35,331 nt of DNA from IMG/VR virus record IMGVR_UViG_2703718813_000007; one strand, given 5' to 3'. A program made the translations under genes and the position numbers. Source of the DNA: a virus. Lineage: Duplodnaviria; Heunggongvirae; Uroviricota; Caudoviricetes. Of this stretch, positions 1,294 through 16,377 are shown piece by piece; position 1 is the first letter of the stretch, and each line of letters starts with the position of its first letter. The notes below the pieces were generated by a model that worked only from the letters and a program-made list of their open reading frames with translations, was not told the DNA's origin and searched no databases.

Positions 1294-1410
1294 TACCCAA
1301 TTTTTCTGAATCTAAAAAGCGCCTGCGGGTGGTTTTGGTGGTGTATTAACATATTGAAAATAAAGATTTTTTATTTTCATGTGCCCAGATAACGTCCATC
1401 TTTGAAACAA

Positions 1411-1450
1411 AAAGCCCGCAGTTTTTACGCTGCGGGCTTTGTTTTTCTTT
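1411..1450. terminator. Rho-independent terminator hairpin, usable in both directions (3' end of hok unit A transcript; possibly also serS)
   Basis: AAAGCCCGCAG (1411-1421) pairs with CTGCGGGCTTT (1430-1440) around an 8-nt loop. An A-run lies upstream and GTTTTTCTTT downstream. Confidence 0.5.
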
Positions 1451-1531
1451 GTGACTTGCGTGTGAGGGTGCTACTTTCGGCCTTACCCTGGCAACCGATT
1501 GACGGGGGATTACTCCCCCGTCGCGGTTTCT

Positions 1532-1672
1532 TTACTGTTTACACTGTAAGAACGCCGCAAACTCCGCTCCCCAGATGTTCATCCGTATTTCACACAGCGA
1601 ACCATGTAACATCCAGATGATGAGGATTGCCGTCACGCAGAACGTGATGGCCATAAGCGATTTTTGCGACAT
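1532..1672 (-). CDS. hok: Hok/Gef-family small membrane toxin, copy A (46 aa)
   Basis: Minus-strand ORF ATG at 1672 to TAA at 1532-1534, translating to MSQKSLMAITFCVTAILIIWMLHGSLCEIRMNIWGAEFAAFLQCKQ. It has an N-terminal hydrophobic helix and the Hok-family SLCEIR ... E.AAF pattern. The upstream sequence AAAGGAG lies about 11 nt before the ATG. Confidence 0.7.
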   Translation of the reverse strand: MSQKSLMAITFCVTAILIIWMLHGSLCEIRMNIWGAEFAAFLQCKQ

Positions 1673-1828
1673 GGCGCTTGCTCCTTTGTTGGAGAGGCGC
1701 TAACCTATCACTTGCTAAAGGTAATGTGGGTTAGGGCCTCGGGTTAAACAATATGTTTGACTCGGGGCCTTTCCACATCCGGCCTTCAGGTATTCCTTCC
1801 AGCCGTCAGCCGAAAGGCACCCGCATGT

Positions 1829-1857
1829 AATTTACTGATTTCCCTTTGTGTGCGCAA
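1829..1857 (-). promoter_or_regulatory. Candidate sigma70 promoter for the hok unit A mRNA (minus strand: -35 TTGCGC, 17 bp spacer, -10 TAAATT)
   Basis: The plus strand carries AATTTA at 1829-1834 and GCGCAA at 1852-1857, exactly 17 bp apart. The same arrangement recurs in unit B (2303-2331) and, with -35 TTGCAC, in unit C (3026-3054). Confidence 0.35.
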
Positions 1858-1890
1858 TGCTCAGTATTGAAGCTGTTGAGGGGAGACGGC

Positions 1891-1916
1891 AAAAAAAAAG
1901 CCCGCATATTGCGGGC
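1891..1916 (-). terminator. Terminator of hok unit B transcript
   Basis: GCCCGCA (1900-1906), loop TAT, TGCGGGC (1910-1916); the plus-strand A9 run at 1891-1899 gives a T-run after the hairpin on the minus strand. Confidence 0.5.
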
Positions 1917-2006
1917 AATGAAGTCAGTACGCTAACCCAAAAGGGTGCCATATCAGCCGAACCCGGCAACCGGATAGCGGGGGGCTTTCACCCCCGCTGC
2001 GGTTTC

Positions 2007-2147
2007 TTACTGTTTACACTGCAAGAACGCCGCAAATTGTGACCACATGATGTTAAGTCTGAACTCACACGGAGAACGGTGTATCATCCAGACGGTCAAC
2101 AACATGGTTAAGCATAAAATGCTCACGATGATCGTTTTTTGCGGCAT
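2007..2147 (-). CDS. hok: Hok/Gef-family small membrane toxin, copy B (46 aa)
   Basis: Minus-strand ORF ATG at 2147 to TAA at 2007-2009, translating to MPQKTIIVSILCLTMLLTVWMIHRSPCEFRLNIMWSQFAAFLQCKQ. AAAAGGAG precedes the ATG. The conserved SLCE is replaced by SPCE here. Confidence 0.65.
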   Translation of the reverse strand: MPQKTIIVSILCLTMLLTVWMIHRSPCEFRLNIMWSQFAAFLQCKQ

Positions 2148-2302
2148 AGCGCTTGACTCCTTTTACAGGGAGGCGCTAACCTTCCACTTGTCACGGTAGG
2201 AAGTGTTAGGGCCTCGGGTTAACATTTAAGTTGACTCGGGGCCTTTCCACATCCGGCCTTCAGGTAATCCTTCCAGCCATCAGCCGAAAGGCACCCGCGT
2301 GT

Positions 2303-2331
2303 AATGTACTGATTTCCCTTTGTGTGCGCAA
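2303..2331 (-). promoter_or_regulatory. Candidate promoter of hok unit B (minus strand: -35 TTGCGC, 17 bp, -10 TACATT)
   Basis: Positional equivalent of the unit A promoter; hexamers read directly from the sequence. Confidence 0.3.
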
Positions 2332-2615
2332 TGCCTGGCGTTGAAGCAGACAACGCTATCGCACTGGTGATATTCTTTCGCACAGGCTTACTCTGTCCTG
2401 TGTCGGGGCGATGAAAATGATTCTTTCAAGAAAAAAATTGAAATTGAGGTTGTGCAAAGTGGAACGGCTGATAATCCTGAGACGGTTACAAAAATAAAGG
2501 TTTCACGCCCGGAAGATCTTGAAGCGTGTGGTGTTATCGTGGAAAAAATTTGTGCTATTCATGCAAAATCAGTTAATACCACTGCCAGTAACGACCACAA
2601 TAAATACAACTGAAC

Positions 2616-2638
2616 AAAAAAGCCCGCATATTGCGGGC
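2616..2638 (-). terminator. Terminator of hok unit C transcript
   Basis: GCCCGCA (2622-2628), loop TAT, TGCGGGC (2632-2638), with a plus-strand A-run at 2616-2621. Confidence 0.5.
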
Positions 2639-2729
2639 AAATACGTCTGTAATCCAATGGAGAAAGGGGTGCCATATCGACCGAACCCGGCAACCGGATA
2701 GCGGGGGCTTTCACCCCCGCTGCGGTTTC

Positions 2730-2870
2730 TTACTGTTTACACTGCAAGAACGCCGCAAATTGTGACCACATGATGTTAAGCCTGAACTCACAGGGTGAGT
2801 TGTGTATCATCCAGACAATCATCAAAATAGTTATGCATAAAATGCTCACTATGATCGTTTTTTGCGGCAT
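2730..2870 (-). CDS. hok: Hok/Gef-family small membrane toxin, copy C (46 aa)
   Basis: Minus-strand ORF ATG at 2870 to TAA at 2730-2732, translating to MPQKTIIVSILCITILMIVWMIHNSPCEFRLNIMWSQFAAFLQCKQ. AAAAGGAG precedes the ATG. Confidence 0.65.
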   Translation of the reverse strand: MPQKTIIVSILCITILMIVWMIHNSPCEFRLNIMWSQFAAFLQCKQ

Positions 2871-3025
2871 AGCGCTTGACTCCTTTTACAGGGAGGCGCT
2901 AACCTTCCACTTGTCTAGGGTAGGAAGGGTTAGGCCTCGGGTTAAACAAATGTTTGACTCGGGGCCTTTCCACATCCGGCCTTCAGGTAATCCTTCCAGC
3001 CGTCAGCCGAAAGGCACCCGCGCGT

Positions 3026-3054
3026 AATTTACCTTTTACGTCCGTTACGTGCAA
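3026..3054 (-). promoter_or_regulatory. Candidate promoter of hok unit C (minus strand: -35 TTGCAC, 17 bp, -10 TAAATT)
   Basis: AATTTA at 3026-3031 and GTGCAA at 3049-3054 on the plus strand; the -35 sits inside a CCGTT-ACGTGC-AACGG palindrome. Confidence 0.3.
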
Positions 3055-3696
3055 CGGATGACGTGGCTGTTTTTCCTTCCCCTTCGCCATCCTTTTTCGG
3101 AGCAGTTGTGCAAAAGTGTGCAAAAGTGATTTTTGCTGCCACTCCCCGCCAGGCCGCGCAAGTTCTGGCTTTCCTGATTTTTTCGTTTTCGTCGTCGGAT
3201 CCTTTTTCAGATCTTCGATCGTGACGTAATTTTAAAAATCTCTTGTTATTCAGTGCATTAAAATTTTTCGGGATCCTCAGAAAGCCGGAGTTTTTGCACA
3301 CTTTTGCAAAACCTTGCACAAAGTGCAAAACCATTCAGAAGGGAAATCCTCAGTAATGGCGCGCCCTGGCGGGGTGTTTTGCACCCCTTTCGATTTGCAA
3401 AATTTATCGTACACAAATACCGGAGGCGTGTGCGGGGTAGCGCCGATTACGTCACTTTACGCGTTACGTCGCCCCCGAAAATTTCCGGCCATTTGCGGCG
3501 ATTTTGGGGCGCAGAAATCGTTTTCTGATGTCAGGGGATCGAATCGGGCTGGCGGGGTTATCTCTTCGTTACGTGGCGTTACGCGACGTTTTACGTGGGG
3601 ATTAAGTGGGGCGTTTCGTCCATCTTTTTTCTGCTGCGGACGGTTTTTTCGTGGTGGGTGATGTCCGGTGATGAATATTTTTTATTGTCCGGGAAT

Positions 3697-3720
3697 AAAA
3701 AAGGCCACATTGCGCGGCCT
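3697..3720 (-). terminator. Weak terminator after the last tail gene
   Basis: On the minus strand, AGGCC, loop GCGCAATGT, GGCCT, then TTTTTT, immediately after the stop codon at 3735-3737. Confidence 0.3.
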
Positions 3721-3734
3721 GTTAAAGTGAATGA

Positions 3735-5408
3735 TTATTCGATTATTGGTGAATATTTATTTTTAAGCTGGCGGCACTCCTGAGCGACCTGGCTGAACTG
3801 TGCGGCCTGCGGAGACGTGCCCGTTTTGGGGTGGGTATGTGATGCCGTAATATCGGCCAGCTCTTCCACCACATCGGCAAGGTCCGTCAGCATGGTCAGT
3901 ACATTAATGCCCTCGTTTCCCAGCTTCACCGTATCGCCAACCAGCTTCTGCGCCAGCGCAATACTGTGACGGACGCCCTTAATCTTTTCGGTAAGGCTGC
4001 CGCCCACGGTGTCCAGTGTGTCGCCTTCCACGTCGCGCTCACAGGTACCGGCAACCACCATCATGTGCCCGCCCGTGCTGATGCTGTAGTTCTCTTCAGT
4101 GATATGGGTGACTGCGCCAGCCTGAAGCGTGGATACGCCCAGGACGGTGGTTGTGTCGGTTGCCTGTATGGTGGTCTCCCGGCTGGTCAGGCTCCGCGTC
4201 TCCTCGTCTGCGCTCACCACGCGCTCGCGTGATGTCTCCTGTATCCGCTGGTCTGTCTGGCGCTCCCAGTCTCCGGCGACCGTCACGCGCTGCGATACGC
4301 CGTCGCGCTGTTGCTGCAACTGCTCGCCCGGCTTCACGTCGGGCAGATTGTGGCCCTCTGCCATTATCTGGCGGATGAAGGGCTTATCCGCCCGGCCTTC
4401 CACAAATCCCACTTCCACCAGGGTTCCGGGTGGCGGGAACTGGAACATGCCGGACTCACTGCCCGCCATGGGTACGGGGAGGGGAACGGCGTTATAAACG
4501 GGCGTATCCGCTGCCGGGTTGCCGTTCTCGTCAAGCAGCTGGAGATTCACCGCGTAGCGGGGTCTGAACGGGTCGGCAATATTGCCCGCGCTGACGGCTT
4601 CGGTCGGCGCCTCAACACGTGCCAGTTTGGGCAGGTGAAGCCCTGATGCCAGTTCAGGGAAGGCCTTTTCAGCCTGGCGACGGAAAGGGGACTTCTGGAG
4701 GGGGGCGCCGGTGGCTTTATTGCGTGGTGTCCACGTGATGGTCATGTTGTCATCTTCCAGCATGACCATCGTCAGGCGCTGACCGTTCACCTCCACACCC
4801 GGTCGCAGCGTCTGAATCATCGGGAGGGTCATACTGTGTCCGCCCGTTGATGCCTGGCTGAACTCGTGCGGGATGGTGACGGGGCGACCGGAAAACATCC
4901 CCTGCGCGGCGGCAGCGGCCATAATGCCGCCGTCCGGTAACGGATGCCAGATGTAGTCCGGTACGGAGAAAATACGCCCCAGACTGGCCAGCAGTTCGTA
5001 GCCCGTGCCGCTGTGCGTGAAATGCGGAACGGGCCTGTCAGTGTAAGCCGCGTTGTCCGGCAGGATGATTTCCAGCCCGCTGGTCTCACTCAGCCACTGT
5101 GTGACCGTGCGCATTGTCGGGTGCTGAAATGAACAGGGGAAGGGGTGATCAAGGATCCCCGCCATTTCACGAATCAGAAGCCGCACCGAGCCGTTTTCAG
5201 CGGGCTGGCTGCGTTCAACGTATCCGGTAAACCAGCGCACCAGGTCGTTTCCGTATCCGATATCGAGACGAACAGGGCGCCCGGTGTAGTTCTGCTCTGT
5301 TCTGGCCGTGATAAATCCGCGTCCGCACGCGTTCAGCTCAAGCATGACGGAACAGCTGACCAGCTGAATGGTGTCGTTACCCAGTAACAGACGTTTAGTG
5401 GGGTTCAT
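3735..5408 (-). CDS. Baseplate hub-spike fusion protein (N-terminal hub region plus C-terminal P2 gpV-like spike with apex motif), 557 aa
   Basis: The segment GTLVEVGFVEGRADKPFI resembles the OB-fold of the P2 gpV family, and the C-terminal ASHTHPKTGTSP resembles the gpV/gp5 apex motif (HTHKHPGDSGGTTGSP in P2 V as I recall it). Last gene of the tail operon. From memory only. Confidence 0.55.
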   Translation of the reverse strand: MNPTKRLLLGNDTIQLVSCSVMLELNACGRGFITARTEQNYTGRPVRLDIGYGNDLVRWFTGYVERSQPAENGSVRLLIREMAGILDHPFPCSFQHPTMRTVTQWLSETSGLEIILPDNAAYTDRPVPHFTHSGTGYELLASLGRIFSVPDYIWHPLPDGGIMAAAAAQGMFSGRPVTIPHEFSQASTGGHSMTLPMIQTLRPGVEVNGQRLTMVMLEDDNMTITWTPRNKATGAPLQKSPFRRQAEKAFPELASGLHLPKLARVEAPTEAVSAGNIADPFRPRYAVNLQLLDENGNPAADTPVYNAVPLPVPMAGSESGMFQFPPPGTLVEVGFVEGRADKPFIRQIMAEGHNLPDVKPGEQLQQQRDGVSQRVTVAGDWERQTDQRIQETSRERVVSADEETRSLTSRETTIQATDTTTVLGVSTLQAGAVTHITEENYSISTGGHMMVVAGTCERDVEGDTLDTVGGSLTEKIKGVRHSIALAQKLVGDTVKLGNEGINVLTMLTDLADVVEELADITASHTHPKTGTSPQAAQFSQVAQECRQLKNKYSPIIE

Positions 5409-5410
5409 GG

Positions 5411-5953
5411 TTACTCCAGCGCATCATTGACGGGTTTGAGGACCTTTTCTTCGAACCAGGTCATTTTCTCCGGTGTTTCGTCGGCCACGGTCCCGCCTTT
5501 TGCGCCGGGCGTCTGCGGCGTCTGTTTACGGCTGCTGCCGGGGGTGGCGCGTGCCTGGCGTTTTTCCGGTACGCTTCGTCTTTCGCGTAATGTGAAGCTG
5601 ACCTGCCAGGCGAGGCGGTCGGTCTGCTGCTGTGCGTCTATCTGCCCGGAAAATGTCCCTTCACGAAAGTTAATGGCGGCAGCGGTGGCGTTTGCGATAC
5701 GGTAAACTTTCAGGGCACCGTCCCCGGTGGTGGCAGAGGCCAGCTGGAAAATGCGCTGAAGGGCCCGCTCATTGTCAAAGGTGATCATCCCGGTTACGCG
5801 AAGCTCTTTGGCCTTGATGCCCTGCTCGGCGTTCGCGGTGCTCGATGTCTGGCCGGACTGGTCCTTTTCCTGGAACTGCATCGAGGGCGAAATCACCATG
5901 TTCTGCATGAAAATACCCTCACCATCAAGGGCGAGCAGTGCGGTCTGGCTCAT
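5411..5953 (-). CDS. Phage tail-associated protein, function unassigned (180 aa; start may be the internal ATG at 5908)
   Basis: ORF in the tail operon between the tail-fibre assembly gene and the hub-spike gene. The track start overlaps the upstream gene by 29 nt, while the internal ATG at 5908 is preceded by GAGGG. Confidence 0.4.
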   Translation of the reverse strand: MSQTALLALDGEGIFMQNMVISPSMQFQEKDQSGQTSSTANAEQGIKAKELRVTGMITFDNERALQRIFQLASATTGDGALKVYRIANATAAAINFREGTFSGQIDAQQQTDRLAWQVSFTLRERRSVPEKRQARATPGSSRKQTPQTPGAKGGTVADETPEKMTWFEEKVLKPVNDALE

Positions 5954-6650
5954 GGATCATTTTCCCCAGTTCGGTTAATGAGTCTGCCGCCAGGAGTGCG
6001 GCCACAGTATGTACGGCGGTCGGTGCCGGGATATCCTTCACCATGGCCGCCGCTGCGGCGCGGTGATACCCCCGGTACTGAAATACCCAGGCCTGCGCCT
6101 TCTGTTCTGCCAGTGTTCTGATCCCCTCTTCCAGTCCGGCAAGTGCGCCAGCCCGTCTGCTGATAAAGCGGCTTATCTGGCGGCGAAGCCCTGCGGCATC
6201 CGGGCGTTGTGCTGCCAGCTGCCTGGCCTGTGCTGCACGGGCGGCACTGACTGCGCTGCGTATTGTGGAAACGGAAAGATGCACAGGTGCGGGCAGGGTG
6301 TCGGTGGTGATCGGGATTTGCATTTTGTCAGTGCTCAGACTGGCGGCAGCCTGTGCCATGCGCTGTGCCTGCGTGAATACCGGCACGGGCAGAACGGTGG
6401 TCAGTGCCGCCATTGACTGTATAAAAAGATCGTGGGTGTTTTCGGCAATCATGATAATGGTCACGTCGCCGGATGCACGGCTTCCGGCCATTTTCCCGGC
6501 CAGCCAGTTTATGGCGTTCGGAGGGCTTAAATATACCCCCGATTCTTCATATCGTCCCAGCCCGTAAGTCCACGGTGTGACGGGGATGACGGAACAGCTC
6601 AGCGGGGGCATGTCAGCGCTGACGCTGATTGTTTTTCTTGTCCACGTCAT
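5925..6650 (-). CDS. Phage tail-associated protein, function unassigned (241 aa, Ala-rich)
   Basis: ATG at 6650 preceded by GGAGG, 11 nt after the stop of the tail-fibre assembly gene. Same strand and operon as the tail genes. No motif recognised. Confidence 0.4.
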   Translation of the reverse strand: MTWTRKTISVSADMPPLSCSVIPVTPWTYGLGRYEESGVYLSPPNAINWLAGKMAGSRASGDVTIIMIAENTHDLFIQSMAALTTVLPVPVFTQAQRMAQAAASLSTDKMQIPITTDTLPAPVHLSVSTIRSAVSAARAAQARQLAAQRPDAAGLRRQISRFISRRAGALAGLEEGIRTLAEQKAQAWVFQYRGYHRAAAAAMVKDIPAPTAVHTVAALLAADSLTELGKMIHEPDRTARP

Positions 6651-6661
6651 GGTGCCTCCGG

Positions 6662-7258
6662 TCAGCCTGCGTGATGATCCGGCGAAGGGGATTCAGGCCA
6701 GACAATATCCGGCGCGTTGCCCGTGTCTGTCCGGTTCAGTAATACCCGGTATTTTTTCCACAGGGGAAGCAGGGCGCTTTCATCGTCGGTCGCCATATTT
6801 AAATCCACGGCATCCTGGAGGATGTTTATTGTATTTGTTGCTTCCTGTATTAATTCCCGTTTTTTGTTCTCCGCCTCGCTCACCCGGTAAGCCTGTTCTG
6901 CTGCTTCATCCTTAACCCATGATGAACCATCCCACCGGCAGAACTCCCCGTCCGGTTTTATTTCTGTCACGTTTTCCGGTAACGGGCCCGGCTCAGTAAT
7001 CAGTAAGGCGCTCCCCGACTCCAGACGCCAGACGGCTTTACCCCGGTGATCTTCCATGAGGTGCCAGGCGTTTTCATCCTCATCAAAGATAGCCACGTGT
7101 CCTTCAGGAATGTCAGGCGGGGCAATGTCCGTTGAGTGCGCAGGCAGTCCGGTATGCGGAGGGATCCAGGCATCGCCTTCGCCGATAAATTCATTTGTTC
7201 CGGCTGACAGGTTGTAGATTTTAATTGTCTGTGGGTGTTCGCTCATTTTAAAGGTCAT
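6662..7258 (-). CDS. Tail fibre assembly chaperone (lambda Tfa-like), 198 aa
   Basis: The N-terminus [48 protein letters not shown] matches the lambda Tfa family start as I recall it. Its ATG overlaps the tail-fibre stop codon. Confidence 0.85.
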
Positions 7259-9318
7259 TATGCAAGCCTCACGATGTAGTTAAATGCGATGTTTTTGACG
7301 GTGTTTTCCGCATTACCGGTGGGGTTAATGGTCAGGCCGTGGCCATGTTGACCCAGTGCGAGCGTGTGGATGTGTTCGCCAATGCTTACCGAATGTGTGT
7401 GTTCCGAAACTCTGGCGATCAGGTTCGCCCCGGAGCCCGGCCCGTATGCGGTCCAGTCACCGCTGCCTTCCGGTGACGCGGTGGCGGTTCTTAATGATAT
7501 TGTTGCGCTGAACGGCCCCGCGCTGTTTGTTGTTTTTGTGCCGTAATTGAAGGATGAGGTCGTTTTTGTGCCAAGGTCAGTATTTGAGACGCTCCCTCCG
7601 TGGGTGTGCGATTTGATGCCGTCCTGCTCCTGTGACAATACCGCACGACCGCTGGCAGGTTTTCCCTTGATTGTCCAGCCACGCATATCCGGGATACGAC
7701 CATCCGGATAGGCTTTTGCCAGCAGGGGATATCGTGCTTTATCGAATGTCTGCCCCACCATGATGGCGTAACCGGCAGGTGGGGTGTCTGACGGCCACGG
7801 CAGGGGAACGCCTGCGGGTAACAACTCACTTGCAGGCAGTGCGCCGATGTCCTGTGGTGTGGGTTTGTTTTTGTCCGTGTAAGTGCGGTACCAGATGGTG
7901 CTTTTCCCTTTATTTAAAACAACCCCGGTGAACTGTGTGCGGAGGTACATGTCGGCAGGGTTTGGGCTTTCGAGACCTGTCGTGATCCTGATGATCCCCC
8001 CGTTGATGTCGCCTGATACTTCGATAAGGCAGCCTCCAAGGCAGATATCACCATAGCCCGTATCAGTGAGCACGCTGTGCCGGGAAAGTGAAATATTGGC
8101 TTTGAATATCCAGAGTCCTGGTCTGAAGGCGCCACGTTCATTCAGCCATTCCACGAATTGTTCTGTTGTCCAGCGTTGCCCTGCTTCACCCACGTACCCG
8201 TCTTTTGCATAAACGCGTGGTGCGCCCACGTTGATCAGGAACAGCTCCTTGTTGGGGATGTCCTCACCATTGCGGTTTTTCGCAAGCCGACCATCGGCGT
8301 TGTCCATGGCGATCTTTATAGCCTTTGGCGTGGCTGCCTGTGTCTCTGATGTACTGGTGGTGGCGCTGCTTAACTGTGTGAAGCCCTTTTCTTTCAGCGT
8401 TGCGTCCGGGTGGTTGCGTGATTTCTCGTGTTTTTTCAGAGCGTCCAGCCAGCGGCGTTCTTCCGGCGTTCCTCTGGGGCGCAGGTCAGTCACGTTGCCG
8501 TCTTCATCAATGTCAGCAAGGGCAAAAAAATATTGCCGGGCGGCCTCCTTCCTGTGTGCTTCCAGCAGGATCTCTTCCGTGGCGGCGGGGTCGGCCATGA
8601 TAATATCGTGCTCCACCGTCCATTCACTGGTGAGCGTACCGGTCCACCATACTGTCAGCCAGATACGGGACGGGAAGTCTGGCGTGGTCAGCGGTATGTC
8701 TTCGGTCAGCTCTGCGCGTAATCCCTCCACGTAACCGGTCCCTTTGCAGAGTGACCATCTTTCGCCTTTTTTAACCAGCCAGCCGTCCCCAAAGAATGCA
8801 GCGTTACCGTAAATATCGATGTTTTCCCGGCGCTGGCGCTCGTCCATGGCCGCCAGACGTGCCGTGAAGTCTATCTGCCAGGTCTGCGCCGGGGTGGTGA
8901 TACCTGTGGCTTCCTTCGCACCGCTGTACTCCATGAGCATGGAACGGACCAGCACATTACCTTCGTTACCGTTGTGGGTTCTGATTTTTTTCTGTGTGGG
9001 GGCGTGAACAATCATGGCCAGCGTGCTGGTTGCTTTGCTGACCAGTCCCACCCAGTTAAATTCAAAATCACCCAGCTCTGCCCCCAGGGTGACCGAATAA
9101 ACCACGGCATTCTCATTCACCACGCCGGTTTTGCCAACGGCCTGGCGGTGAACAATCTGATCTTCAGGCGGCAGGGTTTCGTCGGGGGATACCGGTGTTT
9201 CCGGGTTGAGGTCCGGGACGTTTGCAAAAACAAACTCATCCAGCACAACGGGGGTGCCTTCCGCCGCCTGCTGTGCCTTGAGCCGGATAAAGGCGCTGGT
9301 AATTACAGATTTCGCCAT
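7258..9318 (-). CDS. Tail fibre protein, 686 aa
   Basis: Contains the tail-fibre shaft motif [33 protein letters not shown] (shared with the P2 H family) and a C-terminal receptor-binding region ending [24 protein letters not shown], as in lambda Stf-type fibres. AAGGAG precedes the ATG at 9318. Confidence 0.85.
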
Positions 9319-9340
9319 AAAGTCATACTCCTTCAGTCAT

Positions 9341-9889
9341 TCACTCTGCCCTGGCCGTCCAGCAGATATACTCCCCTTCGTATGCGCCATAATGGATGAT
9401 GAAGGGGTTAAGGGTTTCCACCTCAAAACGGTAACGGCGGCATGTCCTGCCATATTTGCGGATGATCTCCAGAAGAAGATCGCTGTTGTCGGCTATCTGG
9501 CTGTCTGTCACCTGCACCAGGATCACATCCCAGTCCACGCCGGGCTTGCGCTCCTGCAACTCCACATGTCCAATGCCCAGCCGTTCAAAAATGGCAATAA
9601 ATCCTGCCACCTCTCCGGCGTCCTGTGCATTGACAAAGGCGTGGGCGATACGGCGGCGGTACAGTGATGTGGGTTCACTTTTAAAACGGGTGATGTCCCG
9701 CTCCCATGCCAGTAAATCAAGTACGGGCTCTGCACATGTCATGGGGTCAAACTGGCGCACGGGCCAGGTGATCCATTCCCATACGCGGGACCAGAACGCC
9801 TGCGCGGCCCGCAGCAGTTTGTCGGGTTCCCCCCTGTCCATCCAGGAGGGCAGTTTCAGCGAGCGAAGTCGCTGCAAAAAGTCATTCAA
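9341..9889 (-). CDS. Baseplate/tail protein I-like (DUF2313/YmfQ-like), 182 aa; TTG start
   Basis: Lies between the baseplate J-like gene and the tail fibre gene, as P2 I / Mu gp48 do. The start codon at 9889-9887 is TTG with GGAGG 6 nt upstream. Family assignment is by position and size. Confidence 0.55.
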   Translation of the reverse strand: MNDFLQRLRSLKLPSWMDRGEPDKLLRAAQAFWSRVWEWITWPVRQFDPMTCAEPVLDLLAWERDITRFKSEPTSLYRRRIAHAFVNAQDAGEVAGFIAIFERLGIGHVELQERKPGVDWDVILVQVTDSQIADNSDLLLEIIRKYGRTCRRYRFEVETLNPFIIHYGAYEGEYICWTARAE

Positions 9890-11066
9890 TGACCACCTCC
9901 ACTGTCAGGGATTCGAGCCGTGGCACGGCCAGATCGCTGATGATGTCTTCCAGTGAAAACTGAACCGAAGCCACCACCGGGAAGGTCTGATGAATTTCCT
10001 TGCCCAGCGTGGAAAACGAAAAGCGCGAATAGGGCCAGACTTTTTTCACATTAAAGCGGGCATTCTCCCGAAAAGCGCAGCGTATCAGGTCGCTGATATC
10101 CTGTTTCAGCCCTTCCGCGCCGTCCGGTGGCAGGGTGGTTGAGCTTCTGATGTATACGGTGACGTCCAGACGGTGACGCGTCTCCGGCATGGCGAAACAC
10201 TGCAAATCATCCCCGTGTCCGTGGTGCCCCTCTTCGTTGATGTAGCGGTTGACTGCTTCAATAAAAGGGGCAGAGGCCTCGCCGCTGTCCAGTAACAGGT
10301 AGGCGTTGGCCGTTCCCGGTCCTCTCGGGGCGTCGTGCTGAAAGTAGATCCGGTCGATGCTCAGGCCCGCCACGCTGGCGATAAGTCCCCGGTAGACGGC
10401 GTCCGTGTGGTAACTGCTCACGAGGTTAAACTGGTTGCGTATTCTGTCGCGCAGTTCGTCGTCGCTTTCCTCATCGGCACCCGGTACGGTCAGCCAGTCT
10501 TCCCGGTTCACCACGGATGCAATGCCGGGAATGGCAACGGGAAGGATACGGAAGTACCCCGGCGCGAGGTTGTGCCCGCTGCCTTCGGTGGTGGCTTCCA
10601 CGGGAACGGATGCGCCGCTTTTACCGCTGCTGATAAGCGTTTCCTCCGTGACGGCCATGCTGTATATCACGCCGTTAATTCTGGCGGTCTGGACGATGGT
10701 CCCTTCGGGGATGAGAACATCATCATTTGCTCTGGTTTTGGCAAACCAGATCACGCCACGGGCCTTACTGGCCGGTTTTGGGGTGATGTTGACGTCGTGC
10801 GCATGAAGCAGAAGAAGTGACCGGTCAGCCGTGGCGACAAACATACCGGGCAGCACAACGTCAACCAGCGCATCACGCAGCCACTGAACGGGTCGTATGA
10901 CAATGGTCAGAATGAGCCGCCAGAAGGGACTCATGGGCGAGGTGTTGGTGATGAGTCCGGTTTTCTGTACATCCTCATGAAAGAGGGTGGCGATCTCTTC
11001 TTCTGTTTCCGGCATACCGCTTTCACGGAATACCTGATTAAAATCAACGTCCGGTTTCCCTTTCAT
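9882..11066 (-). CDS. Baseplate J-like protein (P2 gpJ / Mu gp47 family), 394 aa
   Basis: Size and position match baseplate wedge J. Family assignment is from gene order and general resemblance only. Confidence 0.7.
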   Translation of the reverse strand: MKGKPDVDFNQVFRESGMPETEEEIATLFHEDVQKTGLITNTSPMSPFWRLILTIVIRPVQWLRDALVDVVLPGMFVATADRSLLLLHAHDVNITPKPASKARGVIWFAKTRANDDVLIPEGTIVQTARINGVIYSMAVTEETLISSGKSGASVPVEATTEGSGHNLAPGYFRILPVAIPGIASVVNREDWLTVPGADEESDDELRDRIRNQFNLVSSYHTDAVYRGLIASVAGLSIDRIYFQHDAPRGPGTANAYLLLDSGEASAPFIEAVNRYINEEGHHGHGDDLQCFAMPETRHRLDVTVYIRSSTTLPPDGAEGLKQDISDLIRCAFRENARFNVKKVWPYSRFSFSTLGKEIHQTFPVVASVQFSLEDIISDLAVPRLESLTVEVVIE

Positions 11067-11394
11067 AGTTCACCCTGGTGTTTATGCGTCCAAAATCCTG
11101 TGTCTCTGCCGTCACATGCAGCCTGCCCGGTGCCTCTTCGTTAATGAACACCGTCCCCGGAACCAGCCGTTCATCATCCTCAACCAGGAGGATAAGCCGG
11201 GTAATGATGTCGCTGCGCAGCGTCGGGCTGCGTTCGCCGATAAGCAGGGCGGCGATCCCGCTTTCGATAATGCTGTGCACCACGTCCTGGCCGATGCTGA
11301 CCCGGTTATCACATCGCTGTGGCTCGTTTCCGCTGTTCAGCGTAAAACTGCCGTCAGTGATAAGCAGGTCGATGTAAAGCGATGGCGTGTTCAT
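11044..11394 (-). CDS. Small baseplate protein (P2 W / Mu gp46-like position), about 116 aa
   Basis: The ATG at 11394 overlaps the tape-measure stop codon (ATGA); the track start at 11415 would overlap by 25 nt. Function inferred from position between tape measure and baseplate J. Confidence 0.45.
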   Translation of the reverse strand: MNTPSLYIDLLITDGSFTLNSGNEPQRCDNRVSIGQDVVHSIIESGIAALLIGERSPTLRSDIITRLILLVEDDERLVPGTVFINEEAPGRLHVTAETQDFGRINTRVNYERETGR

Positions 11395-13577
11395 CCCGCG
11401 TAAAGCTCCGTCCATTCATCCAGTTGCCCCGGCGTCATCGGGTTCTGCGTGTTGATTGTCAGATTGCCGAACGTCCGGCTGTTGTCGATACGGGTTGAGG
11501 TGTCCGTGCGTATCTGGTTGCGTATGCCTCCGGGTGGCAGCTCTGCGCTGATGCGGTTGCCTGCCAGTGCCGGGACGGCGGTTTCTGCAATCTGCGGAGG
11601 TACGGTGCTGCCTGTTGCGCCCCGCGTCATGGTGTTCACCTGCTCCGTGGGCTTCATGTCGATACTGATACCGGGGATTTTGTTCAGCTTTTCCGCAAGC
11701 CAGTTCCACGTCCGGTTAAACGAGTTTTTAATGACGTTCCATAAGTCCCCGAAGACGTTACCGATGATCCCCGCCATTTTCCGGAAGGATTCGACCGGGG
11801 CGGTCGGGTCAAATGCAGCCACCACGTCCTGCCACCCTCTGATGACGATGGCGAAGATGTCGATCAGGGTTCTGATCACGCTGATAACCACCTCCAGCGC
11901 GGGGGATATCATGCTTACCGCTGCGGCCACCACGCGACCGCATGTTTCCCCGGCACGGGTGACGCTGTTCATCTGTCCCGTGGTCAGCTGTACCGGTGCA
12001 AACAGATCGGAGAAGGCACTGAACAGTGTTTTTATGCCCTGCCATACCGGGGCCAGCGCCCGGGCAATGTCACCGAACGCGGCAGTCACCGGGCTCATGG
12101 CGTCCAGTGCGCTGGTAAAACCATCAATAAAGCCGCGAATAAAGGCTTTGATGGGCTGCCAGAACTTAATGGCCACCACCACCAGAGCAGCGATGGCGGC
12201 GGCAACCAGGAGGACCGGGGCGCTCATGGTCAGAAACGACACGCCCGCCAGACGCGCGGCAAGACTGGTGGCAATGATGGCACTGCGTACTTTTGTGAGT
12301 GCAAGCGTGTACAGACTCCAGGCTGCCCTGGCGCCCTTTATGATGGCCTTATGGCCTTCCATGATGAAGCTGAACACACCCAGCACGATGTTCGTGACCG
12401 CACCGGCTGCGCCCAGCGCCAGCATGGTCAGCGTGATGTAACCCAGCCAGCGGGCGATGTTCGGGAACATGTTCAGCCAGCGCACGAACGTCGCGCCGAT
12501 ATCGGCAAAACGGCCAGCCAGTGGTGCGAGAATGGGGTAGAGGGCATTACCGATGGCGGCCCGGATGTTGTAGAAGGAGGCCACAAGGCGATCCCACGGG
12601 TCGGTCATGGCTTCAGCCATTTCCGTGGCACGCTTCATGCCGTCATTACGCCCCAGCGCTGATATGCTCCGGTTAAGCATTTCCTGCTGCCCCCAGAGTT
12701 TTTTAATCACGTCCGCGCCACTGCCGAAGGCGTCATCCAGCGCCTGTTGTGCCGCCACGTTACCCTCAATGTTCCTGCCGAACCTCGCCTGCAGACGGTC
12801 GAGGATGTCACCCATGGGTAAAATCCTCCCGGTGACATCGACAAAACTCATCCCCATTTTTTGTGCGGCAGCGGGGGCACTGCGCAGGAATTCCTCATAG
12901 ATGCCCGATGCCTCGGTGCCCATGGTCCGTGACAGGGTGCCCAGTATGGCAAACTGCTCTGCCATGCTGACGCCAAAATCCGCGCCCGCGTTTTTGGTGC
13001 CCTCAATAAGCTCCTGCATGGTGCTCATTTCCACACCGAACTGCTGAACCATCCACGCGGTTTTACCTGCCAGATCTTCAGCAAACCCCACGGCACCCAT
13101 GGCAGAAAACTCACTGCGGAAACGGGCACCCATGGCGGCAAGGTAGCCGCTCGCCTCTTCGCTGCTGACGCGGGCAGCCACGGCCAGGGTGCTGGTTGCT
13201 GCCGTCACACGGGGTAAATCCCCGTCGCTCAGTCCGTCCAGTGCGCCGCGAATATGCCATGCGGAACGGATGATCTCCGTGGAAGACTGACCGAATGCGG
13301 TCCCCAGTTTCATGGCCTGCGTGGTGAGGGCGGTCAGCGCCTGCGCCCCGACGCCTTTGGCCTCAAGCTCGCCCAGCGCCTTCTGCATCTCCCACGCCGG
13401 ATCCATCGCGGCGCGGATACCTTCGGCCACGCCCCACAGTCCGGCCACACCCACACCGATACGCGCGAACGCGCCCTGCGAGCGTTCGGCGAATCCCGTC
13501 ACGGATTCCTGAACCTGCCGCAGCGGGCGGGTAAGCTGGTCTGTCAGATTGATAATGAAATCCAGCTGGCTGGCCAT
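11391..13577 (-). CDS. Tail tape measure protein, 728 aa
   Basis: Long, Ala/Gly-rich, largely helical protein with hydrophobic central segments, directly downstream of the tail assembly chaperone. GGAAGG lies 5 nt before the ATG at 13577. Confidence 0.85.
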   Translation of the reverse strand: MASQLDFIINLTDQLTRPLRQVQESVTGFAERSQGAFARIGVGVAGLWGVAEGIRAAMDPAWEMQKALGELEAKGVGAQALTALTTQAMKLGTAFGQSSTEIIRSAWHIRGALDGLSDGDLPRVTAATSTLAVAARVSSEEASGYLAAMGARFRSEFSAMGAVGFAEDLAGKTAWMVQQFGVEMSTMQELIEGTKNAGADFGVSMAEQFAILGTLSRTMGTEASGIYEEFLRSAPAAAQKMGMSFVDVTGRILPMGDILDRLQARFGRNIEGNVAAQQALDDAFGSGADVIKKLWGQQEMLNRSISALGRNDGMKRATEMAEAMTDPWDRLVASFYNIRAAIGNALYPILAPLAGRFADIGATFVRWLNMFPNIARWLGYITLTMLALGAAGAVTNIVLGVFSFIMEGHKAIIKGARAAWSLYTLALTKVRSAIIATSLAARLAGVSFLTMSAPVLLVAAAIAALVVVAIKFWQPIKAFIRGFIDGFTSALDAMSPVTAAFGDIARALAPVWQGIKTLFSAFSDLFAPVQLTTGQMNSVTRAGETCGRVVAAAVSMISPALEVVISVIRTLIDIFAIVIRGWQDVVAAFDPTAPVESFRKMAGIIGNVFGDLWNVIKNSFNRTWNWLAEKLNKIPGISIDMKPTEQVNTMTRGATGSTVPPQIAETAVPALAGNRISAELPPGGIRNQIRTDTSTRIDNSRTFGNLTINTQNPMTPGQLDEWTELYAG

Positions 13578-13578
13578 G

Positions 13579-14042
13579 TCACCTTCCGTTAAATGCGATC
13601 GCTATACCTTCAGCGGTCTTGTTGGCGCGGGTACGGGCAAAATATTCATCCAGCCAGATGGCACGGGCGATGCTCTCTTCGTCGTCCGGCTCTCCGGGGA
13701 GGTAGTGACGCCGCAATGCCAGATACTGCTCAAGGGGATTGCGGCGGATGCTTTCGACCCGCGCGGTCAGTTTTTTAACTCAATCTCCAGTTTCGGGGAG
13801 TAAACCTCGTTAATCTTCTCGACGATCTGCATCTCACAGCCCGGATAACGCGCAATCAGGTCAGCCAGTGCGTCGCGGCTGGCAGGTGTCACGATGCGGT
13901 TAAGATAGGTGCTCATCGGCGCCACCTTGTTGGTCATCGTGATTTCGTTGATGAGGTTGTTAAATGCCGTTTTGTTCGGTTCAAAGCTCAGGGTTACGCC
14001 CGCAACGGACAGGATGATGGTGCCGGTGTTCTTCGTGGTCAT
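13579..14042 (-). CDS. Predicted -1 frameshift fusion product of the tail assembly chaperone (P2 E+E' analogue)
   Basis: After a -1 slip at the heptamer (plus-strand coordinates 13770-13776), 63 codons remain open (KKLTARVESIRRNPLEQYLALRRHYLPGEPDDEESIARAIWLDEYFARTRANKTAEGIAIAFNGR) and stop at 13579-13581, 1 nt before the tape-measure ATG. The track shows no ATG-initiated ORF in this 190-nt gap. Confidence 0.5.
13767..14042 (-). CDS. Tail assembly chaperone (P2 gpE-like), 91 aa
   Basis: Small ORF immediately upstream of the tape measure. It ends ...CTG GAG ATT GAG TTA AAA AAC TGA, with the heptamer A_AAA_AAC directly before the stop. Confidence 0.6.
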   Translation of the reverse strand: MTTKNTGTIILSVAGVTLSFEPNKTAFNNLINEITMTNKVAPMSTYLNRIVTPASRDALADLIARYPGCEMQIVEKINEVYSPKLEIELKN

Positions 14043-14332
14043 TGCAGTTTCTCCGTGTTTCGTATGGTTTCCACCAGGCTGTTATGCCTGGCGGCGCATT
14101 CGGTGTAGCGGCTCGTGAGGGTTCGCAGTGCCGCATCAAAATCAGCGCCCGTCGGGCCTGCCAGTCTCGGCAGTGTCTTCGGGCATTCCGTCAGCTGGTT
14201 TTCCTGCCAGGGTACGCTCAGCGGCTTCAGCACGGGCGTTGAACAGCCGGACGTAATCATCAGTAGCGCACACATTGCGGAATACCGGGCGGACGGTTTC
14301 CGTGTGAATAACGCGTTCAGTGTGAATTTCAT
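14039..14332 (-). CDS. o-spanin (Rz1-like outer-membrane lipoprotein); start at 14332 or 14275
   Basis: Small Pro-rich ORF in an alternate frame overlapping the 3' half of the i-spanin gene. It has a lipobox-like ITSGC after a hydrophobic stretch, and its stop overlaps the chaperone ATG. Confidence 0.5.
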   Translation of the reverse strand: MKFTLNALFTRKPSARYSAMCALLMITSGCSTPVLKPLSVPWQENQLTECPKTLPRLAGPTGADFDAALRTLTSRYTECAARHNSLVETIRNTEKLQ

Positions 14333-14528
14333 TGCCCTTTAACGCCTCCAGCCGTTTTTCCAGTATGCGGGCGGACTGCTGCCCGGCTTCTGTCACCGCC
14401 CGTCGCGTGGCTTCCATGGCTTCCTGTTCGGCAAGCGCCACCCTGGCGTCATGCCAGTCATGGGCCAGCCAGCCCGCCCACATGGCGGCAAAGAGGATCA
14501 CCAGGCAGCCCGCCAGCTGTTTCATCAT
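14142..14528 (-). CDS. i-spanin (Rz-like), 128 aa
   Basis: N-terminal transmembrane helix (LAGCLVILFAAMWAGWLA) followed by a charged helical periplasmic domain. Directly downstream of the endolysin with an ATGA overlap. Confidence 0.6.
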   Translation of the reverse strand: MMKQLAGCLVILFAAMWAGWLAHDWHDARVALAEQEAMEATRRAVTEAGQQSARILEKRLEALKGNEIHTERVIHTETVRPVFRNVCATDDYVRLFNARAEAAERTLAGKPADGMPEDTAETGRPDGR

Positions 14529-14863
14529 TTCACCCCGTTGTGCTCAAGGCTGAAATGATTGCCGTCTGCCCGGCTGAAGCGTCCGCCCCATGTGCCGCCG
14601 ATGGATTCCCAGTATTCCCCCAGCGGCCTGTAGGCGTCGGTGTCGGCCTGGTATTTGCCGTTAATGAACAGGTTGAAGTCCACCGCGAGGCGCAGCGTGT
14701 GAAGGCTGTTGCGAATGCCTTTTCCGCTTTTCGCATTCAGTGCGGCCTGCTCCGGCGTGCGGTATGCCTCGCCGAAGGTCAGGCGATAGCCGTGCTCCTG
14801 TGCCCAGTGGATGAGATCGGCAATCATGACGGCAAACAGTTGTTGTTTTTCGCTCAGTTTCAT
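14525..14863 (-). CDS. Endolysin, peptidase M15 family (L-alanyl-D-glutamate peptidase type), 112 aa
   Basis: Metal-binding motifs of M15-type phage endolysins as recalled: H in SLHTLRLAVDF, D in AVD, and H in DGNHFS. GAGGAG precedes the ATG, which overlaps the methyltransferase stop. Confidence 0.75.
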   Translation of the reverse strand: MKLSEKQQLFAVMIADLIHWAQEHGYRLTFGEAYRTPEQAALNAKSGKGIRNSLHTLRLAVDFNLFINGKYQADTDAYRPLGEYWESIGGTWGGRFSRADGNHFSLEHNGVK

Positions 14864-15615
14864 CAGTCACTCCTCTGTTCCGTCCCCGTAAGGCGCGCCT
14901 GTGCCACGCTGAAATAGTGGGCGTTCAGTTCAATACCCGTAAAACGGCAGCCCCGGCGAAGGGCGGCCACGCCCGTGGTGCCGGACCCCATAAACGGATC
15001 GAGGATCAGCCCTCCGGGTTCACACACGCGCACAAGCTCATCCATCAACGATTCCGGTTTACCTGTCGGGTGCTGTTTCTCCTGTGGGCGTGTGTGGTGC
15101 GTGATGCAGCCGTCGAACGGCCCGGAAGGGGATTTGCCCAGCGCGCCTTTACTGCCCCAGACCACATATTCGCACTGGTGACGAAAATAACCGGTATGCG
15201 GTGTTCTTGAGGCCCGTCCCTTGTTCCATGCCACGATCCCCCGCCAGGTAAAACCGGCGGCCTGGAATGCGTCCGTCAGCGCGGGCAACTGCCGCCAGTC
15301 GGTGAAGACCAGGGCGTAACCACCGGGTCGTACCGTGCGCCATGCCTGTGTCATCCACAGATGCGTCCAGTATTCCCATGAACGGGCGTCCATGTTCTCG
15401 CCTTCGAAGCCTTCAAAGCGGTGAAGATCTTCATCGTTGATGTATTTGGCGTGGCTGCCCTGGCATGTCCGCCCCGCCTTGTGTGTGGCACCTGAACTGT
15501 ATGGCGGGTCTGTGATGAGCGCGTCCACACTGTTTTCCGGCAGCATTCGCAGAACGTCATGCGCCTGCGCGTGATACAGGCTCAGGAAAGGCGAAATGTA
15601 AGGCTTATGGGTCAT
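14863..15615 (-). CDS. DNA methyltransferase (N6-adenine or N4-cytosine, beta-class), 250 aa
   Basis: Motif IV DPPY near the N-terminus (ALITDPPYSS) and the AdoMet motif I near the C-terminus (LILDPFMGSGTTGVAA), with HPTGKPESL between them. This circularly permuted order is typical of beta-class amino-methyltransferases. No adjacent restriction gene. Confidence 0.85.
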   Translation of the reverse strand: MTHKPYISPFLSLYHAQAHDVLRMLPENSVDALITDPPYSSGATHKAGRTCQGSHAKYINDEDLHRFEGFEGENMDARSWEYWTHLWMTQAWRTVRPGGYALVFTDWRQLPALTDAFQAAGFTWRGIVAWNKGRASRTPHTGYFRHQCEYVVWGSKGALGKSPSGPFDGCITHHTRPQEKQHPTGKPESLMDELVRVCEPGGLILDPFMGSGTTGVAALRRGCRFTGIELNAHYFSVAQARLTGTEQRSD

Positions 15616-15910
15616 TTCTGCGTTCCTTCTGCTTCAGGTAGCGGTCTGCCAGACGGCAAAAGCATTCTTCAATAAAGGCGCTGCCCATAATGCCCAGCGC
15701 GCACGCCAGACCGACCACAACCAGTTCCGGCATGTCCGGAAATTTAAACAGCGGAATGGCGGCAACCGGTGCCACGGCAGAGCCCATAATCATTCGCCCG
15801 ATAAGCAGACGGGCTGTGATGCGATCGCGGCTCACCATGAGACGCCCCAGCCCGATGGCAGCACCGATGATAATCAGTTTTGCCAGGAGTGAAGTCTGAC
15901 CGTCCGGCAT
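15605..15910 (-). CDS. Holin (class I, three transmembrane helices; P2 gpY-like), 101 aa
   Basis: Three hydrophobic segments and a charged C-terminus (RLADRYLKQKERRNDP). The segment ITARLLIGRMIMG resembles the P2 Y holin family. AAGGGG precedes the ATG at 15910. Confidence 0.65.
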   Translation of the reverse strand: MPDGQTSLLAKLIIIGAAIGLGRLMVSRDRITARLLIGRMIMGSAVAPVAAIPLFKFPDMPELVVVGLACALGIMGSAFIEECFCRLADRYLKQKERRNDP

Positions 15911-15914
15911 GGCA

Positions 15915-16376
15915 TCACCCCTTCAGATCGCGGGTGTCACGGGCTGACAGGTAGGGCACGCCGTCAATGCTGATAAAGTCCGGGCTTGTGACCATGAACT
16001 TGATTTTTTTCGTGGTCTTTCCGGCTTCAGCTGCGCTGATGTTCACCACGTCCGACAACATGGGGACGCAGCCGAACACCTCGATTTTTTCCTCCTCGCT
16101 GCCGTTGTTGGCATAAAAGAGAAAATCCTTTTCAGGAATGGCACGCCACGACCCCGCAGAGCGGGCCACAGCACCAAACTTTTTAAAGTTCTGCGCGTCG
16201 ACTTCCACCTCCACATCGGCAGAAACAGAACCACGGGTGTAGCCGTTCGGCACGCCGCGCGTCTGTGCCACGGCGCTGTTGTCGGTGATGGTGACGGTGG
16301 CGCTTTCCACGTGGATCATGATCCCGTCGTAGTTGATATCAAACGCGCCGCCGCTGATACGTTCATTTCCGGCCAT
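15915..16376 (-). CDS. Tail tube protein (putative), about 153 aa
   Basis: The ATG at 16376 lies 1 nt after the sheath stop codon (TGAcATG), preceded by GGAG. Size and position after the sheath gene are the main evidence. Confidence 0.5.
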   Translation of the reverse strand: MAGNERISGGAFDINYDGIMIHVESATVTITDNSAVAQTRGVPNGYTRGSVSADVEVEVDAQNFKKFGAVARSAGSWRAIPEKDFLFYANNGSEEEKIEVFGCVPMLSDVVNISAAEAGKTTKKIKFMVTSPDFISIDGVPYLSARDTRDLKG

Positions 16377-16377
16377 G

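Follow-up and report, generated by a model that had tools for sequence, protein, structure and literature searches.

The DNA analyzed here, referred to as the window, is a 35,331-nucleotide stretch from the tailed-phage (Caudoviricetes) record IMGVR_UViG_2703718813_000007 of IMG/VR. Between positions 3735 and 6650, the open reading frame (ORF) list contains exactly three ORFs, all on the minus strand, which encode in order of transcription proteins of 241 residues (5925–6650), 180 residues (5411–5953), and 557 residues (3735–5408), homologous to orf33, orf34, and orf35 of phage HP1, respectively. The genes are tightly packed behind the tail-fiber assembly gene (6662–7258, minus strand): an 11-nt gap precedes the first of them, the 241- and 180-residue genes overlap by 29 nt, and 2 nt separate the 180- and 557-residue genes. 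An intrinsic-terminator-like stem-loop with a T-run (3702–3720, minus strand) lies just past the stop codon of the 557-residue gene, the final gene of the late tail operon, which ends there. In Escherichia coli JNEC-KY174, a locus 99.3% identical to this one is annotated in RefSeq with the same three coding sequences at the same lengths, named ‘hypothetical protein,’ ‘baseplate complex protein,’ and ‘hypothetical protein.’ The ORF list, the RefSeq coding sequences, and the terminator agree with the original prediction, made from the letters of the window, that three genes follow the tail-fiber assembly gene and that the 557-residue gene is the last. As judged from sequence comparisons, all three are real genes, because the 557-residue protein has 1145 database relatives (E ≤ 1e-5), the 180-residue protein matches the Pfam family PF25759 with 183 bits, and the family of the 241-residue protein comprises 239 representative clusters (E ≤ 1e-3 among 1.84 billion representatives in an exhaustive profile search). 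We interpret the region as the three terminal genes of a late tail operon that belongs to an E. coli prophage of the HP1 subgroup of Peduoviridae; the products of these genes together would form the central (inner) baseplate, and we give this reading a probability of roughly 85%.

This is the usual gene arrangement of HP1-type tails. In HP1, orf27 (tape measure), orf28 (DUF2590), orf29 (gpJ), orf30 (gpI), orf31 (fiber), and orf32 (fiber assembly) are followed by orf33, orf34, and orf35, and the window matches this order gene-for-gene. All tail genes of the prophage are on the minus strand, with the tape measure at 11391–13577, a DUF2590 sheath-initiator homolog at 11044–11415, gpJ at 9882–11066, and gpI at 9341–9889 (all assigned by Pfam), followed by an intact fiber gene (686 residues) at 7258–9318 and the fiber assembly gene given above (Caudo_TAP, E = 1.7e-38). 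The same order is found in K139 (orf31–39), vB_YenM_324, and phiO18P, all with a fused hub-spike gene, and in phi3, ACA2, and UFJF_PfPro, which carry separate hub and spike genes. It is thus kept in HP1-subgroup phages of six host genera (Haemophilus, Vibrio, Aeromonas, Yersinia, Pseudomonas, and Pseudoalteromonas), and in K139 the corresponding position holds an annotated terminator, T39. Among the phages compared, only C5a departs from this order, its fiber gene being followed directly by orf34; positions 6910–9492 of the examined C5a locus hold neither a fiber assembly gene nor an orf33 homolog, unlike the other eight HP1-type genomes. A near-identity DNA search of positions 3600–7300 against phage records returned no match, so protein-level searches were needed. 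By tblastn, the 557-, 180-, and 241-residue proteins were found in 75, 76, and 35 phage records, respectively, and the hosts of the matched phages are Vibrio, Escherichia, Pseudomonas, Pseudoalteromonas, Salmonella, Aeromonas, Pasteurella, Haemophilus, Cronobacter, and Yersinia.

This conserved layout bears directly on the proposal that the region corresponds to the cargo position of P2. In P2, the non-essential gene fun(Z) comes after gene G, and the original prediction equated the region with this Z/fun slot, leaving the 241- and 180-residue proteins as either tail components or cargo. Several GenBank records indeed name homologs of the 180-residue protein ‘adenine glycosylase’ or ‘nucleoid DNA-binding protein,’ but no Pfam or NCBIfam match supports these odd product names. 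Moreover, fun(Z) of P2 is encoded on the other strand and lies past the terminator of the operon, whereas the genes here are co-directional and packed, with neither a promoter-like site nor a terminator between them; no sigma-70-like site was found anywhere in 3000–7400. Their order is conserved in phages of six host genera, their GC content (~0.58–0.63) is similar to that of the remaining tail operon, and the 180-residue protein has a tube fold, as described below. Matches of the 241- and 180-residue proteins to non-structural families had been named as one outcome that would speak against the prediction; none of the three proteins matches a defense family in PADLOC. The comparison with the Z/fun cargo fails because the three genes are conserved operon cistrons, and we regard the cargo reading, with moron or defense genes in this slot, as effectively refuted; of the two options offered for the 241- and 180-residue proteins, tail components is the better supported.

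The 557-residue protein is a genuine hub-spike fusion with a VgrG-like architecture. It aligns over its full length with HP1 orf35 (38% identity), is 57–67% identical to its counterparts in the nearest named phages (of Salmonella, Cronobacter, and Yersinia), and matches the PHROGs family phrog_2258, ‘baseplate protein,’ from end to end (E = 5.7e-242; residues 1–557 on profile positions 1–544 of 544). An AlphaFold2 (AF2) monomer model built from 32 homologs is confident for residues 1–240, with a predicted local distance difference test (pLDDT) score of ~80–88, moderate for residues ~260–350, and good for the C-terminal helices. When the model was compared with the PDB using Foldseek, the top matches were full-length VgrG-like central spikes (E = 1e-15 to 1e-12 over ~490–670 aligned columns), including those of AlgoCIS (7aef_q, 1.5e-15) and the Anabaena contractile injection system (CIS), Pvc8, Afp8, VgrG1, and VgrS. 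The next matches were hub-only proteins: Mu gp44 (1wru, 1.3e-9), the MuSo2 43-kDa protein (3cdd), the P1 protein, the pyocin R2 hub (6u5h_A, 2.3e-6), T4 gp27 (1k28_D, 6e-6), and the Pam3 hub (7yfz_t). Each hub entry given here by its identifier has a Foldseek probability of 1.00, which places the N-terminal part of the protein in the hub fold, and a fold search of BFVD added further matches that were solely of the hub type.

Four segments can be recognized along the chain. Residues 1–232 (4713–5408, minus strand) form a hub domain with the gp27/gpD/Mu gp44 fold, as seen in the model and its structural matches and in separate hub genes; residues 25–128 also match phrog_196, ‘baseplate hub’ (2e-5). 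The hub is followed by a probable OB-fold domain of the gpV/gp5 type at approximately residues 260–350 (4359–4631, minus strand), to which sequence profiles point below their own cut-offs: Phage_base_V (PF04717) on residues 310–345 with 18.6 bits against a gathering cut-off of 23.8 (E = 0.0025), the VgrG model TIGR01646 on residues 313–362 with 17.8 bits against 121.8 (E = 0.0013), and a second VgrG model, TIGR03361, with 14.2 bits against 186.35. A sequence alignment with Pvc8 covers residues 310–423, a block FRPRYAV...VPLP...G.VEVGF is conserved in fused and split homologs alike, and Foldseek places this region within the VgrG-like spikes. Residues 351–496 (3921–4358, minus strand) presumably form a trimeric β-helix shaft, as suggested by the Foldseek alignment to the shafts of VgrG and Afp8; the length of this segment varies among relatives and is shorter in C5a. 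Finally, an H-T-H motif (His 524 and His 526; 3831–3839, minus strand) lies near the C terminus. The H-x-H apex is invariant in the 32 close homologs and is also present in eight further phage homologs, including those of HP1, K139, phiO18P, phi3, PfPro, C5a, and ACA2. The same motif is the predicted iron site of the ‘tail spike’ gp49 of Smhb1 (PMC8537503), and we presume that the H-T-H motif is a metal-binding spike tip.

The clearest evidence for the fusion comes from the split genes. In phi3, UFJF_PfPro, C5a, and ACA2, a hub gene (229–234 residues) aligns to residues 1–232 of the 557-residue protein and a spike gene (256–323 residues) aligns to residues 239/242–557, the two separate genes overlapping each other in all four phages. 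That HP1 fuses its gpD and gpV homologs has been reported (PMC10612066, Table S1 footnote d, 2023). The prediction of a hub-like N terminus joined to a gpV-like spike with an apex motif is thus borne out by the AF2 model and its Foldseek matches, by the split homologs, and by the conserved H-x-H. No gpD-family Pfam match was found for the protein at E ≤ 0.1, a PDB sequence search with the single protein gave no significant match, and the HHpred link between the ACA1 hub and gpD is at 10% identity only (PMC10612066). The likeness to gpD, gpV, and VgrG is one of fold and architecture, not of sequence.

The 180-residue protein is 43% identical to HP1 orf34 and belongs to PF25759, ‘Bacteriophage HP1 ORF34 baseplate complex protein’ (E = 5.2e-54, the score given above standing against a cut-off of 27 bits), which covers residues 7–179 on profile positions 3–175 of 180. 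The family alignment consists of a conserved 125-residue domain, then a linker, and then a C-terminal helix, WFExKVLKPVNDAL. In the protein of the window, these are a tail-tube-like domain at residues 1–126 (5576–5953, minus strand), containing a long β-hairpin loop with the conserved sequence EKDQSGQTSST; a disordered, low-complexity linker of Gly, Ala, and Lys at residues 127–162 (5468–5575, minus strand); and the conserved C-terminal helix (KMTWFEEKVLKPVNDALE; 5414–5467, minus strand), in which Trp 166, Phe 167, Glu 168, Val 171, Leu 172, and Pro 174 are the conserved positions. The AF2 model shows a tube-type β-sandwich with one helix and a long hairpin, at pLDDT > 90 except for the hairpin tip, and the terminal helix spans residues 166–179.

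This model has the tail-tube fold and is matched best by tube initiators and ‘ripcords,’ among them the pyocin protein PA0626, a homolog of P2 gpU. A separate, genuine tube protein is encoded at 15915–16406 of the same prophage, and the 180-residue gene lies directly upstream of the hub gene, like U before D in P2 and gp43 before gp44 in Mu. In the P2 virion, six copies of gpU on the gpD trimer start the tube, and the C-terminal helix of gpU touches the wedge (preprint 10.64898/2026.09.14.750843). Because of the tube fold, the gpU-like linker and helix, the separate tube gene, and the place before the hub gene, we assign the 180-residue protein as a probable tube initiator or ‘ripcord,’ the functional counterpart of P2 gpU. 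The family Phage_P2_GpU was not among its Pfam matches, PF25759 being the sole one at E ≤ 0.1, and PDB sequence searches with the protein and with the orf34 family profile gave no significant match. Alternatively, the protein could be some other tube-like ring, such as a Dit-like distal-tail adaptor or a baseplate-proximal tube protein. We consider this improbable, since initiators and ripcords are the top-scoring structural matches, the linker and C-terminal helix have the architecture described for gpU, the U-D and gp43-gp44 gene order is retained, and Pfam scans of the proteins of the tail module found no other initiator candidate; in any case, all such rings share one job, that of joining the hub to the tube.

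The 241-residue protein has no recognizable domain. Profile and structure searches, the check proposed with the original prediction, recovered a hub and spike fold in the 557-residue protein and a tube fold in the 180-residue protein; for the 241-residue protein, sequence and profile searches gave no domain match, with none in Pfam, NCBIfam, PDB, or PADLOC using the single sequence and none in PDB using the family profile. It matches phrog_1677 (E = 3.5e-59) and is 26.8% identical to HP1 orf33 (blastp E = 2e-18) and 26.3% identical to K139 orf37 (2e-16), and 11 relatives were found in a word-indexed homolog search. Besides these two proteins, the family includes PfPro_00037 (hhalign probability 99.8%) and ACA2 gp46 (97.5%), and many of its representative clusters have 280–300 residues and an N-terminal extension. 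When the family profile was run against six-frame ORFs of the retrieved loci, an orf33 homolog was found immediately upstream of orf34 in eight of the nine genomes. No similarity between orf33 and orf34 was detected by hhalign. Five unusual matches to the family were scanned with Pfam; one carries a piece of the fiber assembly domain and is probably a mis-called fusion, and one is a spurious low-complexity match.

In P2, pyocins, Mu, T4, and extracellular contractile injection systems (eCIS), a LysM protein or domain is found at the junction between the baseplate center and the wedges; proteins of this ‘glue’ type are P2 gpX, PA0627, and T4 gp53. No LysM match was obtained in the 241-residue protein or in 58 further family members, and Pfam scans found none in any other protein of the tail module. 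The segment YLSPxNAxxxLAxKL of orf33 was entertained as a first LysM helix and rejected, there being no LysM match in the 59 members and no match to gpX. Given the lack of a LysM protein in the tail module, the ‘glue’ position between center and wedges could be taken by the 241-residue protein, and on balance we lean slightly toward its being a low-copy inner-baseplate protein, restricted to this type of tail, in this position. A bolder and more doubtful suggestion is that the orf33 family represents a structurally new inner-baseplate protein that replaces, in HP1-type tails, a LysM ‘glue’ which is almost universal elsewhere (gpX, gp53, or the LysM domain in initiators of the Afp7 type). If so, the baseplate center would consist of three products only, namely orf33, a minimal initiator, and a fused hub, spike, and tip.

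A structural role agrees with virion data from a related phage. ACA1 gp46, labeled ‘HP1 orf33,’ was found by mass spectrometry in purified virions with 2 spectra (PMC10612066, Table S2), compared with 1 for gpW, 2 for gpJ, and 2 for the spike, and the authors detected no unexpected proteins (PMC10612066). Mention in the PV94 proteomics paper is limited to the tape measure and a single baseplate protein. Given how small the ACA1 signal is, the 241-residue protein might instead be a morphogenetic factor, for instance a second chaperone for fiber or spike assembly or a baseplate assembly scaffold, that is mostly absent from the finished virion. Its gene lies directly after the tail-fiber assembly gene, C5a lacks both the fiber assembly gene and orf33, and the protein, whose long C-terminal half is rich in Ala, evolves rapidly; tblastn detects it in only 35 of ~76 HP1-type phage records. 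However, ACA2 lacks a fiber assembly gene of the Caudo_TAP type, yet keeps orf33 directly upstream of orf34, and the orf33 homolog in CsCl-type purified virions is at the level of accepted baseplate proteins. In addition, the 29-nt overlap with the start of orf34 suggests that its expression is coupled to that of the inner-baseplate genes. We therefore hold a morphogenetic role, the main rival reading, to be unlikely and retain the inner-baseplate assignment as the more probable one.

Taken together, these features suggest how the three proteins might assemble. The 557-residue protein would trimerize, with residues 1–232 forming a hub ring in which the three-fold symmetry of the spike is matched to the six-fold symmetry of the tube and residues ~260–557 (OB-fold, β-helix shaft, and H-x-H apex) forming a membrane-piercing spike with a metal-stabilized tip. 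A hexamer of the 180-residue protein would sit atop the hub as a tube-initiator ring from which the tube polymerizes, and this protein probably contacts the gpJ/gpI wedges through its tethered C-terminal helix, a contact also made by the helix of gpU in P2 and by the R2 pyocin ripcord. The 241-residue protein may help to join the baseplate center and the wedges.

Several observations weigh against this picture. At the sequence level, hhalign found no link to P2 gpD, gpV, gpU, or gpX or to Mu gp43, all probabilities being below 1%: the profile of the 557-residue family scored 0.3% against gpD and below 1% against gpV, the 180-residue family scored 0.2% against gpU, and the orf33 family scored 0.3% against gpX and below 1% against Mu gp43. 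The family profiles were queried against single P2 or Mu sequences, and two of them, those of orf34 and orf35, are shallow (effective number of sequences 1.8–2.3), which makes their negatives weak. In the AF2 monomer of the 557-residue protein, the shaft (residues 350–496) has pLDDT < 50, and for this reason the β-helix is only a presumed one. The published HHpred links are at 10–15% identity, the one to gpU is termed ‘uncertain’ by the authors of the ACA1 study, and the ACA1 homolog of the 180-residue protein was not detected in virions (PMC10612066). For the 241-residue family, the virion evidence amounts to the 2 spectra already mentioned, at 6% coverage and from a distant homolog (PMC10612066), and C5a has no orf33 homolog in the last 11 kb of its genome.

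Among known systems, the closest are HP1 orf33–35, K139 orf37–39, phiO18P gp44–46, vB_YenM_324 gp33–35, and the corresponding genes of the Salmonella phages SI7 and SW5 and the Cronobacter phage ESSI-2, which share the same three families, their order, their place at the end of the late operon, and the fused hub-spike. The window differs from HP1 by divergence only (38, 43, and 27% identity for the 557-, 180-, and 241-residue proteins), as well as in its host, E. coli, and in adjoining serS. ACA1/ACA2, C5a, phi3, and UFJF_PfPro have homologous orf34, hub, and spike genes in the same order, and orf33 is present in ACA2, phi3, and PfPro; this subgroup has the hub (229–234 residues) and spike (256–323 residues) as two overlapping genes, whereas the window has one. 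For the ACA-type phages, the assignments ‘gpU?’, gpD, and gpV have been published together with virion mass spectrometry (PMC10612066).

The baseplate center of P2 contains the same functional parts in gpU (tube initiator), gpD (hub), gpV (spike and tip), and gpX (LysM glue), with the same U-then-D order, and both the wedge-contacting C-terminal helix of gpU and the H-x-H apex of gpV have counterparts in the proteins of the window. The original prediction that D, U, and V of P2 sit in operons apart from the fiber genes is correct for U and D, which lie elsewhere, but not for V, which is the first gene of V-W-J-I-H-G. In the window, by contrast, V is fused behind D instead of leading the W-J-I-H-G operon, the U-D block comes after G and not after T, the hub is ~150 residues shorter than gpD, and there is no LysM protein, the initiator being preceded by an unrelated 241-residue protein. 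The parts held by the single 557-residue chain are divided between gpD and gpV in P2 and among gp27, gp5, and gp5.4 in T4. VgrG of the type VI secretion system and the eCIS spikes of the Afp8/Pvc8/Alg8 type combine hub, OB-fold, and β-helix in a single chain, the architecture proposed here for the 557-residue protein, and match its structure best. The tip of VgrG and Afp8 is a separate PAAR protein, whereas in the 557-residue chain, part of a phage virion, the H-x-H apex is built in and a C-terminal helix comes after it. The initiators pyocin R2 PA0626, Pam3 gp17, and Pa193 gp38/gp39 are only ~10% identical to the 180-residue protein, which carries no LysM or other extra domain, just the disordered linker and one helix.

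Much of this was already known. The prophage is a typical HP1-subgroup phage, and its layout can be read from the genome record of HP1, which dates from the 1990s. Pfam, PHROGs, and RefSeq already contain the families, and a 2023 publication described the fusion as well as the correspondences to gpU, gpD, and gpV. A literature search on HP1 orf35 as a baseplate protein, vB_YenM_324, and the Pfam/UniProt accessions returned no match. The present analysis adds evidence from the predicted fold in favor of the initiator assignment, locates the junction between the fused hub and spike, and identifies orf33 as the sole unplaced part. It gives specific roles to three genes of an E. coli prophage, two of which are ‘hypothetical’ in RefSeq, with little import beyond annotation. 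Within a single family, the HP1-type phages offer naturally occurring hubs and spikes in both fused and split form. They also appear to lack a LysM glue protein, leaving the virion-associated orf33 family as the remaining uncharacterized piece of a minimal baseplate.

The analysis also corrects names in public phage records, where orf34 homologs are misnamed ‘adenine glycosylase’ or ‘nucleoid DNA-binding protein.’ In the coordinates of the examined loci, annotation errors occur at 7439–10232 of phi3, 9492–10181 of C5a, and 9001–9546 of vB_YenM_324; the hub gene is unannotated in phi3 and C5a, as is the orf33 homolog in phi3. The fiber gene of the JNEC-KY174 locus (13951–16011 of that locus) is annotated as two pseudogene fragments, whereas the copy in the window is intact.

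Outside the three genes, the window begins with serS (1–1293), followed by three tandem hok/gef-type loci (~1400–3070) between serS and the end of the prophage. The latter contain repeat families of 243 and 132 nt, with copies at ~1505–1873, 1980–2347, and 2703–3070, and three Hok/Gef coding sequences are annotated by RefSeq in the near-identical locus. The remainder of the window is a complete P2-family prophage. At its far end are the integrase and Cox, and it also encodes a GpA replication protein, a P2-type portal, terminase, and major capsid protein, homologs of gpL, gpR, and gpS, an HP1-type sheath (DUF2586), the tube protein (Phage_HP1_Orf24), and a lysis cassette. The same hok-containing region occurs beside serS in other E. 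coli strains, where it is flanked by a gene for an ogr/Delta-like zinc finger, which suggests that a P2-type prophage occupies the same serS-proximal site in those strains.

Between the last hok copy and the 557-residue gene, ~700 bp (3030–3735) are without genes. This stretch contains inverted repeats of 21–27 nt rich in TGCAAAA (3105–3167 versus 3292–3377) and several CGTTACG/TTACGT repeats, which could be att, Int-arm, or cos-related sites of the prophage. Within the lysis cassette, a DNA N6/N4 methyltransferase gene (14863–15615) has a holin on one side and an M15 peptidase on the other, and phiO18P carries a methyltransferase in a similar place.

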